Assembly (NCBI GenBank): GCA_964016885.1
Contig: OZ024754.1
Location: 25,172,001-25,236,000, forward strand
Length of the DNA: 64,000 bases
DNA from: Eledone cirrhosa
Lineage: Eukaryota
Reading direction: 5' to 3'
In this document: piece after piece, positions 27,433 to 64,000 of the stretch
How the letters are laid out: each line of letters begins with the position of its first letter
How positions within the stretch are numbered: position 1 is the stretch's first letter
Notes under the pieces: model-generated
Database searches by the model: none
What the model saw: only the letters and a program-made list of their open reading frames with translations
What the model was told of the DNA's origin: nothing
Position numbers and translations under genes: made by a program

Positions 27433-30400
27433 GTGAAGATAGACATAGAATATTCGAAAATATTCTGTATGTTTATAATAAACATTTTGAAGACCTAATC
27501 GTATTACAATTAGATTCTCGATAAAAGCAAGGGAAGTAACCTACGCGTTTCATTCTTATTAGAAATCTTCAGGATTACATATCCAGTGCTTTTATCGAGA
27601 GTGACACAGCTAGAGACTTATAGAATACTTAGCTGTGTACAGGAACTGGTTTGAAAGAGCGGTTGCCGGTCCGGCAGAAATTAGAAATTGGAATAAATGC
27701 TCTGAAATAGCGATATATATGTGAAGATAGACATAGAATATTCGAAAATATTCTCTATGTTTATAATAAACATTTTGAAGACCTAATCGCTATAGAATAG
27801 AATACGTCACGTATTACAATTAGATTCTCGATAAAAGCAAGGGAAGTAACCTACGCGTTTCATTCTTATTAGAAATCTTCAGGATTACATATCCAGTGCT
27901 TTTATCGAGAATGACACAGCTAGAGACTTATAGAATACTTAGCTGTGTACAGGAACTGGTTTGAAAGAGCGGTTGCCGGTCCGGCAGAAGTTAGAAATTG
28001 GAATAAATGCTCTGAAATAGCGATATATATGTGAAGATAGACATAGAATATTCGAAAATATTCTGTATGTTTATAATAAACATTTTGAAGACCTAATCGC
28101 TATAGAATAGAATACGTCACGTATTACAATTAGATTCTCGATAAAAGCAAGGGAAGTAACCTACGCGTTTCATTCTTATTAGAAATCTTCAGGATTACAT
28201 ATCCAGTGCTTTTATCGAGAATGACACAGCTAGAGACTTATAGAATACTTAGCTGTGTACAGGAACTGGTTTGAAAGAGCGGTTGCCGGTCCGGCAGAAA
28301 TTAGAAATTGGAATAAATGCTCTGAAATAGCGATATATATGTGAAGATAGACATAGAATATTCGAAAATATTCTGTATGTTTATAATAAACATTTTGAAG
28401 ACCTAATCGCTATAGAATAGAATACGTCACGTATTACAATTAGATTCTCGATAAAAGCAAGGGAAGTAACCTACGCGTTTCATTCTTATTAGAAATCTTC
28501 AGGATTACATATCCAGTGCTTTTATCGAGAATGACACAGCTAGAGACTTATAGAATACTTAGCTGTGTACAGGAACTGGTTTGAAAGAGCGGATGCCGGT
28601 CCGGCAGAAAATAGAAATTGGAATAAATGCTCTGAAATAGCGATATATATGTGAAGATAGACATAGAATATTCGAAAATATTCTGTATGTTTATAATAAA
28701 CATTTTGAACACCTAATCGCTATAGAATAGAATACGTCACGTATTACAATTAGATTCTCGATAAAAGCAAGGGAAGTAACCTACGCGTTTCATTCTTATT
28801 AGAAATCTTCAGGATTACATATCCAGTGCTTTTATCGAGAATGACACAGCTAGAGACTTATAGAATACTTAGCTGTGTACAGGAACTGGTTTGAAAGAGC
28901 GGTTGCCGGTCCGGCAGAAATTAGAAATTGGATTAAATGCTCTGAAATAGCGATATATATGTGAAGATAGACATAGAATATTCGAAAATATTCTGTATGT
29001 TTATAATAAACATTTTGAAGACCTAATCGCTATAGAATAGAATACGTCACGTATTACAATTAGATTCTCGATAAAAGCAAGGGAAGTAACCTACGCGTTT
29101 CATTCTTATTAGAAATCTTCAGGATTACATATCCAGTGCTTTTATCGAGAATGACACAGCTAGAGACTTATAGAATACTTAGCTGTGTACAGGAACTGGT
29201 TTGAAAGAGCGGTTGCCGGTCCGGCAGAAATTAGAAATTGGATTAAATGCTCTGAAATAGCGATATATATGTGAAGATAGACATAGAATATTCGAAAATA
29301 TTCTGTATGTTTATAATAAACATTTTGAAGACCTAATCGCTATAGAATAGAATACGTCACGTATTACAATTAGATTCTCGATAAAAGCAAGGGAAGTAAC
29401 CTACGCGTTTCATTCTTATTAGAAATCTTCAGGATTACATATCCAGTGCTTTTATCGAGAATGACACAGCTAGAGACTTATAGAATACTTAGCTGTGTAC
29501 AGGAACTGGTTTGAAAGAGCGGTTGCCGGTCCGGCAGAAATTAGAAATTGGATTAAATGCTCTGAAATAGCGATATATATGTGAAGATAGACATAGAATA
29601 TTCGAAAATATTCGGTATGTTTATAATAAACATTTTGAAGACCTAATCGCTATAGAATAGAATACGTCACGTATTACAATTAGATTCTCGATAAAAGCAA
29701 GGGAAGTAACCTACGCGTTTCATTCTTATTAGAAATCTTCAGGATTACATATCCAGTGCTTTTATCGAGAATGACACAGCTAGAGACTTATAGAATACTT
29801 AGCTGTGTACAGGAACTGGTTTGAAAGAGCGGTTGCCGGTCCGGCAGAAATTAGAAATTGGAATAAATGCTCTGAAATAGCGATATATATGTGAAGATAG
29901 ACATAGAATATTCGAAAATATTCTGTATGTTTATAATAAACATTTTGAAGACCTAATCGCTATAGAATAGAATACGTCACGTATTACAATTAGATTCTCG
30001 ATAAAAGCAAGGGAAGTAACCTACGCGTTTCATTCTTATTAGAAATCTTCAGGATTACATATCCAGTGCTTTTATCGAGAATGACACAGCTAGAGACTTA
30101 TAGAATACTTAGCTGTGTACAGGAACTGGTTTGAAAGAGCGGATGCCGGTCCGGCAGAAATTAGAAATTGGAATAAATGCTCTGAAATAGCGATATATAT
30201 GTGAAGATAGACATAGAATATTCGAAAATATACTGTATGTTTATAATAAACATTTTGAAGACCTAATCGCTATAGAATAGAATACGTCACGTATTACAAT
30301 TAGATTCTCGATAAAAGCAAGGGAAGTAACCTACGCGTTTCATTCTTATTAGAAATCTTCAGGATTACATATCCAGTGCTTTTATCGAGAGTGACACAGC

Positions 30401-33400
30401 TAGAGACTTATAGAATACTTAGCTGTGTACAGGAACTGGTTTGAAAGAGCGGTTGCCGGTCCGGCAGAAATTAGAAATTGGAATAAATGCTCTGAAATAG
30501 CGATATATATGTGAAGATAGACATAGAATATTCGAAAATATTCTGTATGTTTATAATAAACATTTTGAAGACCTAATCGCTATAGAATAGAATACGTCAC
30601 GTATTACAATTAGATTCTCGATAAAAGCAAGGGAAGTAACCTACGCGTTTCATTCTTATTAGAAATCTTCAGGATTACATATCCAGTGCTTTTATCGAGA
30701 ATGACACAGCTAGAGACTTATAGAATACTTAGCTGTGTACAGGAACTGGTTTGAAAGAGCGGTTGCCGGTCCGGCAGAAGTTAGAAATTGGAATAAATGC
30801 TCTGAAATAGCGATATATATGTGAAGATAGACATAGAATATTCGAAAATATTCTGTATGTTTATAATAAACATTTTGAAGACCTAATCGCTATAGAATAG
30901 AATACGTCACGTATTACAATTAGATTCTCGATAAAAGCAAGGGAAGTAACCTACGCGTTTCATTCTTATTAGAAATCTTCAGGATTACATATCCAGTGCT
31001 TTTATCGAGAATGACACAGCTAGAGACTTATAGAATACTTAGCTGTGTACAGGAACTGGTTTGAAAGAGCGGTTGCCGGTCCGGCAGAAATTAGAAATTG
31101 GAATAAATGCTCTGAAATAGCGATATATATGTGAAGATAGACATAGAATATTCGAAAATATTCTGTATGTTTATAATAAACATTTTGAAGACCTAATCGC
31201 TATAGAATAGAATACGTCACGTATTACAATTAGATTCTCGATAAAAGCAAGGGAAGTAACCTACGCGTTTCATTCTTATTAGAAATCTTCAGGATTACAT
31301 ATCCAGTGCTTTTATCGAGAATGACACAGCTAGAGACTTATAGAATACTTAGCTGTGTACAGGAACTGGTTTGAAAGAGCGGATGCCGGTCCGGCAGAAA
31401 TTAGAAATTGGAATAAATGCTCTGAAATAGCGATATATATGTGAAGATAGACATAGAATATTCGAAAATATTCTGTATGTTTATAATAAACATTTTGAAG
31501 ACCTAATCGCTATAGAATAGAATACGTCACGTATTACAATTAGATTCTCGATAAAAGCAAGCGAAGTAACCTACGCGTTTCATTCTTATTAGAAATCTTC
31601 AGGATTACATATCCAGTGCTTTTATCGAGAATGACACAGCTAGAGACTTATAGAATACTTAGCTGTGTACAGGAACTGGTTTGAAAGAGCGGTTGCCGGT
31701 CCGGCAGAAATTAGAAATTGGATTAAATGCTCTGAAATAGCGATATATATGTGAAGATAGACATAGAATATTCGAAAATATTCTGTATGTTTATAATAAA
31801 CATTTTGAAGACCTAATCGCTATAGAATAGAATACGTCACGTATTACAATTAGATTCTCGATAAAAGCAAGGGAAGTAACCTACGCGTTTCATTCTTATT
31901 AGAAATCTTCAGGATTACATATCCAGTGCTTTTATCGAGAATGACACAGCTAGAGACTTATAGAATACTTAGCTGTGTACAGGAACTGGTTTGAAAGAGC
32001 GGTTGCCGGTCCGGCAGAAATTAGAAATTGGATTAAATGCTCTGAAATAGCGATATATATGTGAAGATAGACATAGAATATTCGAAAATATTCTGTATGT
32101 TTATAATAAACATTTTGAAGACCTAATCGCTATAGAATAGAATACGTCACGTATTACAATTAGATTCTCGATAAAAGCAAGGGAAGTAACCTACGCGTTT
32201 CATTCTTATTAGAAATCTTCAGGATTACATATCCAGTGCTTTTATCGAGAATGACACAGCTAGAGACTTATAGAATACTTAGCTGTGTACAGGAACTGGT
32301 TTGAAAGAGCGGTTGCCGGTCCGGCAGAAATTAGAAATTGGATTAAATGCTCTGAAATAGCGATATATATGTGAAGATAGACATAGAATATTCGAAAATA
32401 TTCTGTATGTTTATAATAAACATTTTGAAGACCTAATCGCTATAGAATAGAATACGTCACGTATTACAATTAGATTCTCGATAAAAGCAAGGGAAGTAAC
32501 CTACGCGTTTCATTCTTATTAGAAATCTTCAGGATTACATATCCAGTGCTTTTATCGAGAATGACACAGCTAGAGACTTATAGAATACTTAGCTGTGTAC
32601 AGGAACTGGTTTGAAAGAGCGGTTGCCGGTCCGGCAGAAATTAGAAATTGGAATAAATGCTCTGAAATAGCGATATATCTGTGAAGATAGACATAGAATA
32701 TTCGAAAATATTCTGTATGTTTATAATAAACATTTTGAAGACCTAATCGCTATAGAATAGAATACGTCACGTATTACAATTAGATTCTCGATAAAAGCAA
32801 GGGAAGTAACCTACGCGTTTCATTCTTATTAGAAATCTTCAGGATTACATATCCAGTGCTTTTATCGAGAATGACACAGCTAGAGACTTATAGAATACTT
32901 AGCTGTGTACAGGAACTGGTTTGAAAGAGCGGTTGCCGGTCCGGCAGAAATTAGAAATTGGAATAAATGCTCTGAAATAGCGATATATATGTGAAGATAG
33001 ACATAGAATATTCGAAAATATTCTGTATGTTTATAATAAACATTTTGAAGACCTAATCGCTATAGAATAGAATACGTCACGTATTACAATTAGATTCTCG
33101 ATAAAAGCAAGGGAAGTAACCTACGCGTTTCATTCTTATTAGAAATCTTCAGGATTACATATCCAGTGCTTTTATCGAGAATGACACAGCTAGAGACTTA
33201 TAGAATACTTAGCTGTGTACAGGAACTGGTTTGAAAGAGCGGATGCCGGTCCGGCAGAAATTAGAAATTGGAATAAATGCTCTGAAATAGCGATATATAT
33301 GTGAAGATAGACATAGAATATTCGAAAATATTCTGTATGTTTATAATAAACATTTTGAAGACCTAATCGCTATAGAATAGAATACGTCACGTATTACAAT

Positions 33401-63400: not shown

Positions 63401-64000
63401 TCGAGAATGACACAGCTAGAGACTTATAAAATACTTAGCTGTGTACAGGAACTGGTTTGAAAGAGCGGTTGCCGGTCCGGCAGAAATTAGAAATTGGATT
63501 AAATGCTCTGAAATAGCGATATATATGTGAAGATAGACATAGAATATTCGAAAATATTCTGTATGTTTATAAGAAACATTTTGAAGACCTAATCGCTATA
63601 GAATAGAATACGTCACGTATTACAATTAGATTCTCGATAAAAGCAAGGGAAGTAACCTACGCGTTTCATTCTTATTAGAAATCTTCAGGATTACATATCC
63701 AGTGCTTTTATATATATATACATATATATATACATATACATATATATATATATATATATATACATATATATATATATACATATACATATATATATATATG
63801 TATACATATATATACATATATATATATACATATACATATATATATATACATATACATATATATATATACATATATATATATACATACATATATATATACA
63901 TATATATATATATATATATATATATATATATACATATATATATATATACATATATATATATATATATATATATACATATATATATATATATATATACATA
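27433..64000 (-). repeat. 310-bp tandem satellite, ~100 monomers, each with a hammerhead ribozyme on the minus strand; 23 internal TA tracts; continues past the window end
   Basis: gtgaagatag recurs at 27721, 28031, 28341... (period 310); monomers differ at only a few positions. Confidence 0.97.
27536..27578 (-). ncRNA. Minimal type I hammerhead ribozyme (first monomer; repeated in every monomer)
   Basis: Minus strand: GTAATC-CTGAAGA-t TTCT aata AGAA t-GAAA-CGCG-TA-GGTTAC. Predicted cleavage after GUA, between + positions 27542 and 27541. Confidence 0.82.

Follow-up and report, generated by a model that had tools for sequence, protein, structure and literature searches.

The window, that is, the whole 64,000-nt stretch of the Eledone cirrhosa genome that we analyzed, contains a long tandem array of a 310-bp unit carrying a type I hammerhead ribozyme motif. 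Its features are listed below in window coordinates, with nt numbers referring to the monomer.

26808 to 27432, no strand: left-junction (TA)n target tract
27427 to 64000, minus strand: in-window part of the retrozyme array, which goes on to window coordinate 157,518 (contig C14)
27427 to 35738, minus strand: first block, about 27 units with a higher-order period of about 9 units; its left end is the element's short 3' end (nt 137-139)
27852 to 28161, minus strand: reference 310-nt monomer, from cleavage site to cleavage site (nt 1 is 28161)
27846 to 27888, minus strand: type I hammerhead, called from the sequence motif and stem-keeping variants; matches Rfam HH9 below threshold
27883 to 27888 and 27846 to 27851, minus strand: 5' and 3' strands of stem I
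27876 to 27882 and 27858 to 27861, minus strand: CUGAAGA and GAAA
27862 to 27875, minus strand: stem II, with U·U at its base
27853 to 27858, minus strand: palindromic stem III
Between 27852 and 27851, minus strand: predicted cut
27825 to 27911, minus strand: outer helix of 15 bp that encloses the ribozyme, with arms at 27897-27911 and 27825-27839
28017 to 28103, minus strand: conserved structured domain, nt 59-145, two hairpins within a closing helix
28023 to 28031, minus strand: internal AUAUAU stretch ending at nt 139, the short 3' end of insertions
27997 to 28022, minus strand: 26-nt "tail", nt 140-165, found on one arm only of two-armed insertions
35194 to 35291, no strand: TA/CA insert, first of 9 producing 396-bp variant units
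35739 to 36168, no strand: long (TA)n tract, first of 14 in the window

An earlier, sequence-only reading had described about 100 tandem hammerhead monomers here, and we indeed found 101 cores between 27533 and 63649, 96 of them identical; every one is on the minus strand, and the plus strand has none. The array does exceed 36 kb as claimed, but its left edge lies at 27427 (monomer nt 137) rather than 27433, where it abuts a (TA)n tract. It was also taken to be homogeneous; while 78 units are full-length, it is not a plain run, and the monomer matches 30,754 of its 36,568 bases (84%). The 100 core-to-core spacings are mostly 310 bp (67), with 309 or 311 bp in 8 cases, 297 bp in 3, 396 bp in 9 (an 86-bp TA/CA insert) and 615-655 bp in 13 (long (TA)n tracts). 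The window's long (TA)n tracts, 14 in total, all connect monomer nt 257 to nt 170 and are a single fossil insertion junction, multiplied by unequal exchange. In the first block, units nine apart differ least (1.14 differences, vs 1.47-2.2 at other lags). Including the part beyond the window, the array spans about 130 kb and holds 264 core-like motifs; the length of an array in an assembly can be wrong. We detected no protein match to Penelope-like elements (PLEs) and no RT + GIY-YIG open reading frame within the window, and such frames are present elsewhere in the genome.

The ribozyme parts proposed from the sequence are all present: the core, a 6-bp stem I (with one U·G pair), the palindromic stem III, the 15-bp outer helix and both additional hairpins. 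CUGAnGA, GAAA and NUH occur in three-helix order with an open stem I, as in type I hammerheads, and the place of the canonical G10.1-C11.1 pair is taken by U·U in most copies and A-U in some. A search with Rfam, suggested as a check, gave no match in the window at the gathering score; the best sub-threshold match, Hammerhead_HH9, aligns over the full model with a score of 17.1 bits and an E-value of 0.27, the cut-off being 52, and the hammerhead call therefore rests on motif, stems and natural variation rather than on Rfam. Within that variation, the paired change G2A/A277G preserves stem I, and U287A gives an A-U pair at the stem II base. The U·U mismatch, raised as a caveat, is real but has a tested precedent: axolotl HHR_Amex2, which shares both the U·U and a short stem III, cleaves, with 22% cleaved in 1 h as a monomer and better cleavage as a dimer. 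U·U also recurs at this position in at least five hammerhead families of the E. cirrhosa genome. When folded as a circle, the monomer forms 14 of the 15 outer-helix pairs with a probability of at least 0.97. In a separate comparison the monomer fold beat all 100 shuffles (z -3.89). A calculated palindrome duplex of -7.5 kcal/mol makes dimer-assisted cleavage plausible. The haplotype of the window is predicted to mis-pair stem II, its active fold costing 3.6 kcal/mol as compared with 1.5 and 0.4 in two other haplotypes. The UUCG tetraloop was discarded as a meaningful feature, its loop being closed by U-A and relatives carrying GCAA, GCCA or ACCA instead.

The element is a retrozyme of a known kind, and the array by itself is ordinary. 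Newt satellite 2 and schistosome Sm-alpha form satellite-like arrays in which each ~300-nt unit has a minimal, palindromic stem III and is proposed to cleave as a dimer, and the E. cirrhosa array resembles them in both unit length and stem III. The assignment to type I hammerhead retrozymes akin to newt satellite 2 and to the axolotl and coral elements was upheld. The view that such an array is unusually long was not, given the 62-mers of coral (PMC7229834) and the arrays of 180 and 300 units (bioRxiv 10.64898/2026.07.22.740005) already reported; neither array length nor the U·U pair is new. Metazoan non-LTR retrozymes (coral, mussel, axolotl) consist of tandem units of 150-450 bp, each with a type I hammerhead; they are low in GC, code for nothing and lack an LTR-type layout, and PLEs occur in the same genome. 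All of this is shared here: the tandem unit is 310 bp long, non-coding and ~34% GC, within the bounds of the class (150-450 bp, type I hammerhead, GC <50%). In the portions consulted, those accounts do not describe what we observed: two-armed palindromic insertions that have two fixed 3' ends, target (TA)n and carry a single haplotype each.

The 310-bp unit is a very active mobile element, an aspect overlooked in the sequence-only reading. Exact hammerhead cores number 15,806 genome-wide (control, 0), in dispersed copies as expected of a non-LTR retrozyme. At about 6 cores per locus, a ratio extrapolated from 17 loci, this corresponds very roughly to 2,500 insertions of a young family. Counting duplicate loci of one insertion once and leaving out L145, 38 of 51 loci are two-armed, with arms that diverge in all and converge in none; L145 carries two short copies on the same strand, both ending at nt 139. 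Among the 17 loci unselected for their ends, 13 are two-armed, and in 11 of these 13 one end is nt 139 and the other nt 163-170. Insertions lie in (TA)n, and 64 exact junctions at the nt 139 end were found genome-wide (control, 0). The same tail ends recur as loose ends in the independent sequencing run X1, and three sequencing runs of unrecorded library type each contain one 340-nt contig. Only 1 of 88 5' ends falls within 3 nt of the cleavage site (2.0 expected), so there is no pile-up of the kind that run-off at a linear end would leave. Target-site duplications of non-LTR retrozymes, where they occur, exceed 4 bp; here, direct repeats of 15 and 14 bp flank 2 of 7 loci checked; the other five lie inside (TA)n or repeats, where a target-site duplication is unreadable. 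We did not find this insertion anatomy described in the accessible retrozyme literature; the supplements of PMC7229834 and bioRxiv 10.64898/2026.07.22.740005 may show such junctions.

An inverted 5'-truncated arm, two 3' ends, a one-sided tail and a (TA)n target are together the anatomy of a PLE passenger. PLEs leave an inverted 5'-truncated copy with a one-sided 30-40-bp tail (PMC8557442), and two RT start sites were described for an anole PLE (PMC11167929). These traits and the (TA)n bias are shared with Neptune/Hydra-clade PLEs (PMC8557442, PMC11167929, PMC4209133), as is a hammerhead ~140-165 nt upstream of the ends; unlike those PLEs, the retrozyme lacks an ORF, has a 310-nt unit that is multimeric in both arms, and shows no detected homology to the pLTR outside the ribozyme. 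MRC1-type non-autonomous Chlamys PLEs of Chlamydomonas are likewise PLE passengers with multicopy head-to-tail insertions, but their 3' ends are shared with the autonomous partner, and most have no hammerhead. Autonomous PLE families of E. cirrhosa have the same two ends as the retrozyme, into (TA)n, and long PLE open frames of 938, 1096 and 758 aa occur in the genome. The tail of the retrozyme measures 26-31 nt, compared with ~33-69 nt in these families, and matches none of them exactly. One Hydra-like PLE has 25 of the 28 nt of core plus stem II in common with the monomer. We compared the monomer with 45 GIY-YIG loci (the 30 top matches plus 15 picked for long frames, from 10,596 candidates of which 150 were scored) and recovered only inserted relatives and the short ribozyme match, with no shared 3' domain; searching 30 loci of older relatives with PLE proteins revealed no ORF running into the shared 3' end. 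The candidate partner L206, assigned by motif alone, has the Hydra-clade motifs RWR, DKT and CxCX5C, a canonical hammerhead and a (TA)n target; its protein, which is intact, matches mostly unnamed proteins. Intact Neptune-like proteins, also candidates, are encoded at loci L111, L113 and L114.

Haplotypes separate the scattered insertions from the array. Within insertions, 65 of 69 full units carry the modal haplotype of their insertion, and neighbouring insertions differ; 8 haplotypes occur among 11 insertions, with matching arms in 6 of 6 (P ~5e-5). Older insertions of the window type follow this pattern less cleanly, with 19 deviating units out of 56, and one insertion, L144, is a mosaic. 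The array instead has 12 haplotypes in 24 units. None of the modal haplotypes of 29 insertions alters the core, whereas in the array 2 of 63 substitutions hit the core, close to the 2.4 expected. Higher-order repeats of mosaic structure, a core that shows no sign of being under selection, and private variants make the array look like a secondary satellite, which suggests a by-product rather than an active source and illustrates the transition from mobile element to satellite.

We consider the 310-nt unit likely to be a non-autonomous non-LTR retrozyme moved by a PLE, and the array a later, DNA-level product. Observed directly are the structure, copy number, insertion anatomy, haplotype pattern and intact PLE reading frames, from which we infer the following cycle. 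Multimeric RNA would self-cleave at GUA/G, more readily when two palindromic stems III pair with each other, and the monomers would be ligated into circles. A PLE enzyme would bind the structured nt 59-165 region and nick both (TA)n strands. Its reverse transcription would begin at two fixed positions, one at nt 139, where the primer would anneal to the internal AU run, and one at nt ~165, and would go round one circle up to ~10-13 times, after which the two cDNAs would join at their truncated ends into a palindromic multimer. The 130-kb array would have begun as at least two insertions of the same orientation within one (TA)n region, which unequal exchange then multiplied into higher-order repeats; it would now drift neutrally without being the main source of new copies. 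PLE mobilization with circular templates has been proposed for animal retrozymes from co-occurrence and pLTR similarity, and the mobility mechanism was described as yet to be elucidated (bioRxiv 10.64898/2026.07.22.740005). Against the preferred reading we count that 8 of 9 Xenopus retrozyme dimers tested failed to cleave, along with the stem II mis-pairing predicted for the window haplotype, the less clean older insertions and the tail length that fits no PLE family exactly.

The same element and machinery might instead copy a long linear multimer, transcribed from a homogeneous source locus and left uncleaved, with circles as by-products or absent. We regard this as unlikely, even though PLE insertion worked in vitro with unprocessed RNA and was not blocked by ribozyme mutants (PMC11167929), arms would match if each germ cell had one source locus, and homogeneous multimers would also yield one haplotype without a cut-site pile-up; the L144 mosaic and the weak ribozyme predicted for the window fit it as well. 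However, many haplotypes, some of them private, are each fixed over up to 13 full units and both arms, which needs a single-monomer bottleneck. Moreover, linear copying only shortens arms, yet arms of 8-13 units are common, and the core that decays in the array is intact in 29 of 29 modal haplotypes. The two-arm anatomy, the single haplotype per insertion and the lack of a cut-site pile-up point to a single circle that a PLE enzyme primes twice and reverse-transcribes by rolling-circle copying.

The sequence-only reading envisaged read-through transcripts that process themselves into 310-nt RNAs. Less probable again is thus a functional master locus or RNA factory of this kind, whose processed circles seed scattered copies or serve the host. 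The intact cores of 96 of the 101 window units would suit such a role, as would the array's 238 of the 987 copies of its core haplotype and a T159A polymorphism present both in the array and among scattered copies. Nevertheless, that haplotype accounts for merely 987 of the 15,806 cores, array core substitutions are not depleted, and array-private variants, carried by 55 of 150 array units, occur in 0 of 18 scattered window-type insertions (~3e-4, hand-calculated); for one such variant, 19 of 20 genomic matches lie in the array, the 20th being a lone unit on another haplotype. The array may have been a source early on. That the array is purely a DNA satellite, or an artefact of assembly, and resembles a hammerhead by chance is scarcely credible: Rfam gives no gathering-score match and assembled array lengths can err, but for the element this reading is refuted by thousands of scattered insertions with fixed ends that reappear in an independent run, by stem-keeping variation, by ordered differences between array units and by related families with full hammerheads.

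A more specific form of the preferred reading, toward which we lean only slightly, is that a single 310-nt circle is primed twice, at points 26-31 nt apart, by a PLE enzyme that probably acts as a dimer and extends both cDNAs from nicks in the two (TA)n strands, the retrozyme being a chimera of an old, structured RT-recruiting domain, with a telomerase-like AU template stretch, and a ribozyme module in common with a Hydra-clade PLE. If true, this would account together for the tail and inverted arm of PLEs and for the multimers of retrozymes; the scattered copies bear both on how animal retrozymes move and on the origin of the PLE tail and inverted arm. Since the start sites are fixed, a 110-nt candidate recruitment domain is at hand, haplotypes serve as natural barcodes and candidate enzymes are intact, a test with purified protein can be designed directly.

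In this scheme the AUAUAU stretch up to nt 139 would be the annealing site for the nicked (TA)n primer, and the nt 59-145 domain a putative reverse-transcriptase recruitment site. The nt 59-165 domain was absent from the 45 PLE loci, from 30 Hydra-like family loci and from the full element L206. Covariation was assessed on 21 of 30 relative loci, excluding by eye 9 that were truncated or rearranged; both sides change in 3 of 20 pairs, a value reached by 125 of 500 shuffles, and as the 21 rows were picked by a pattern fixing the 3' strand of the closing helix, invariance of that helix is uninformative. The related families retain full hammerheads at an identical distance of 164-166 nt from the tail end.

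All 101 hammerhead cores found from position 27427 to the end of the window lie on the minus strand, bearing out the roughly 100 tandem hammerheads with a 310-bp unit proposed by a sequence-only reading. Within the window, the cores are identical in 96/101 cases and 310 bp apart in 67/100 core-to-core intervals; nine TA/CA inserts break the 310-bp run, as do long (TA)n tracts, which account for 13 spacings and for one further tract at the window end, and the monomer covers 84% of array bases, with 78 full-length units (numbering starts at the predicted cut site, nt 1 being 28161). 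Adjacent stretches of the contig (C14; the window is C14:25172001-25236000 of the 3.0-Gb genome G000) carry the array to window-coordinate 157,518, for a total of ~130 kb that holds 208 complete units and 264 core-like motifs. The impression that this is unusually long does not hold, comparable long arrays having already been published (PMC7229834; bioRxiv 10.64898/2026.07.22.740005). The array by itself is ordinary, and the part worth following up is the insertion record. Other features of the window are:

1873-9399 and 18861-25601, segmental duplication (offset ~16-17 kb, 96-98.6% identity) containing a 72-bp minisatellite
2229-2953, 10508-10905, 11668-12130 and 19218-19980, older relatives of the 310-nt element (69-78% identity), several of them two-armed with the same two end types as the scattered insertions
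13264-17934, degenerate (TTAGGG)n totalling ~2.1 kb, located 25 Mb into the 46-Mb contig and directly abutting a 31-bp minisatellite of 83 copies
26700-26800, plus strand, second, unrelated hammerhead of another high-copy family, with a palindromic stem III and a long stem II whose basal pair is A-U; its 3' end adjoins the (TA)n tract bearing the array, and 30 shuffles of the flank yielded no similar motif

The unit is a mobile element, its 34-letter core pattern matching G000 exactly at 15,806 places (control, 0). We fetched whole the 17 loci on contig C1 holding the first 100 core matches as an unselected set, and chose 34 further loci by window-type sequence (the monomer variant seen in the array) or nt-139 junction. 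Two arms are present in 38 of these 51 loci and one arm in 13; the arms diverge in every two-armed locus (38/38), with 3' ends facing outward into (TA)n. Two arms occur in 13/17 unselected loci, and 11 of these 13 combine an arm ending at nt 139 with one ending at nt 163-170 (the exceptions being 149/164 and 125/166); 28/30 unselected ends belong to one of these two classes. The nt-139 junction of the window haplotype has 64 exact matches (control, 0), with 42 on C1-C4, the four largest contigs.

The nt-139 end sits inside an internal AUAUAU run, and C131T and T135C, nearby changes that resemble the target, suggest that it may be made by primer annealing; at the nt-165 end the overlap is only 1-2 nt. 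In sequencing run X1, nt 139 and nt 170 appear as loose ends. Of seven loci checked, two lie between direct repeats (15 and 14 bp) and the other five are unreadable. In three loci (L131, L141 and L136) the inversion joints, at nt 250/13, coincide with the strands that pair as the 15-bp outer helix, which suggests that the insertion's arms are joined by fold-back through this inverted repeat.

Each insertion carries essentially one haplotype. In the 11/17 unselected loci with full units, 65/69 units match their own insertion's modal (commonest) haplotype, and mean pair difference is 0.14 sites within insertions versus 4.84 between them, with 8 distinct haplotypes across the 11 loci. Both arms share a haplotype in 6/6 insertions (P ~5e-5), with arms reaching ~10 units, and 13 in L143 plus L007. 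Only 1/88 5' ends comes to 3 nt or less from the cut site, against 2.0 expected, and 13/88 lie at nt 10-30, on the outer helix (6.0 expected). Because of this single-monomer bottleneck, the many laps and the lack of a halt at the cut site, we propose that the template would be a covalent circle of one monomer, read round many times. Copying of a multimer that came uncleaved from a uniform source seems unlikely to us, given the same evidence, although the mosaic locus L144 and the less clean older window-type insertions (19/56 units deviate) speak for it. Three runs from three studies, library type unrecorded (X4, X5, X6), each gave one 340-nt contig of another haplotype, all known from G000; 340 is 310 + 30, the length that words of 31 letters would give for a closed loop, a weak hint; low-depth tandem DNA would look alike.

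The 310-nt element fits all testable features of a non-LTR retrozyme, for which circular templates and mobilisation by Penelope-like elements (PLEs) were proposed earlier (bioRxiv 10.64898/2026.07.22.740005). Its insertions show the layout described for PLEs: an inverted 5'-truncated copy, a one-sided 30-40-bp tail and (TA)n bias (PMC8557442). An anole PLE has two internal RT starts whose spacing equals the tail, with cutting of both strands and a predicted dimer; its start site without homology to the target agrees with the retrozyme's nt-165 end but not its nt-139 end (PMC11167929). In the literature searched, including parts of the main texts of PMC7229834 and the 2026 preprint, we came across no account of retrozyme insertions with two arms, two ends and a single haplotype. 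At L122:3795-5990, two copies of one Neptune-like PLE form a palindrome of identical layout, their 3' ends both pointing outward.

A candidate partner is a ~6-kb Hydra-like PLE (L206:1512-7478, minus strand), in which two hammerheads 5,966 bp apart flank a 758-aa open frame with Hydra motifs; it is twice the <3 kb given for the Hydra clade (PMC8557442), and its family has 11,126 hammerhead matches in G000, many copies being tiny two-armed end fragments. Its ribozyme and the monomer are alike at 25/28 nt, 12 of them core (E 1e-4 against that one locus), with no other sequence shared between L206 and the monomer. The retrozyme tail (26-31 nt) is shorter than in the PLE families of G000 viewed, judged by eye at ~69 nt (Hydra-like), ~63 (one Neptune-like) and ~33-35 (two others). 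At least eight distinct hammerhead families occur in G000, most ending in (TA)n, and PLE insertions, nesting in one another, may be a major source of its TA tracts.

Unlike fresh insertions, the array is mosaic, with 12 haplotypes among 24 units of its first block. This mosaicism, the block's 9-unit period (the size of one ordinary arm), the recurrence throughout of one and the same junction (nt 257, (TA)n, nt 170) and, farther along, 6-9-kb repeats holding other elements and units of the younger haplotype lead us to infer amplification by unequal exchange. Core substitutions are not depleted in the array (2/63 versus 2.4 expected), and core or stem III is changed in 16/161 units. Private variants of 55/150 array units occur in none of 18 scattered window-type insertions; the private variant C172 has 19/20 matches within the array, which also holds 238/987 copies of a minority core. 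As T159A is polymorphic both inside and outside it, the array may have acted as a source early on.

The predicted ribozyme is respected by natural variation. The commonest haplotypes carry G2A + A277G, a double change that shifts the stem I wobble and leaves six pairs in place; many have CUGAUGA and some an A-U pair at the stem II base, and no core changes occur among the modal haplotypes of 29 scattered insertions (11 + 18). The 310-nt monomer fold beats 100/100 shuffles. Folded as a circle, the monomer is predicted with good support for the 15-bp outer helix and 4/6 stem I pairs, and with stem II out of register; for the window haplotype, opening the core by constraint takes 3.6 kcal/mol, versus 1.5 and 0.4 for two others. 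An Rfam search, suggested earlier as a check, gave no match at cut-off; Hammerhead_HH9 lies below it at 17.1 bits. The U·U at the first stem II pair (10.1-11.1), previously a caveat, recurs in at least five hammerhead families of G000, two of them PLEs; it is also found in axolotl HHR_Amex2, which cleaves, more strongly as a dimer (PMC7229834). Counting against an active ribozyme, 8/9 Xenopus retrozyme dimers were without cleavage (bioRxiv 10.64898/2026.07.22.740005).

Older relatives (70-80% identity; 964 exact tail junctions in G000) have full hammerheads with stems different from the monomer's, and in 3/4 measurable loci 164-166 nt separate the cut from the same tail end downstream (149 in a deleted copy). 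They share nt 59-165, a candidate domain for recruiting the reverse transcriptase, for which there is modest evidence of two hairpins in the aligned rows: across 25 rows, whose selection fixed the closing helix, 97.6% of cells pair versus 94.7 in shuffles (reached by 0/500), both-side changes occur in 3/20 pairs (reached by 125/500), and RNAalifold yields the same helices. A second tandem hammerhead family (~450-510 bp), with U·U at the stem II base, lies in the array's later spacers, past its end and elsewhere (L023-L028, L030, L121:8068-9553).
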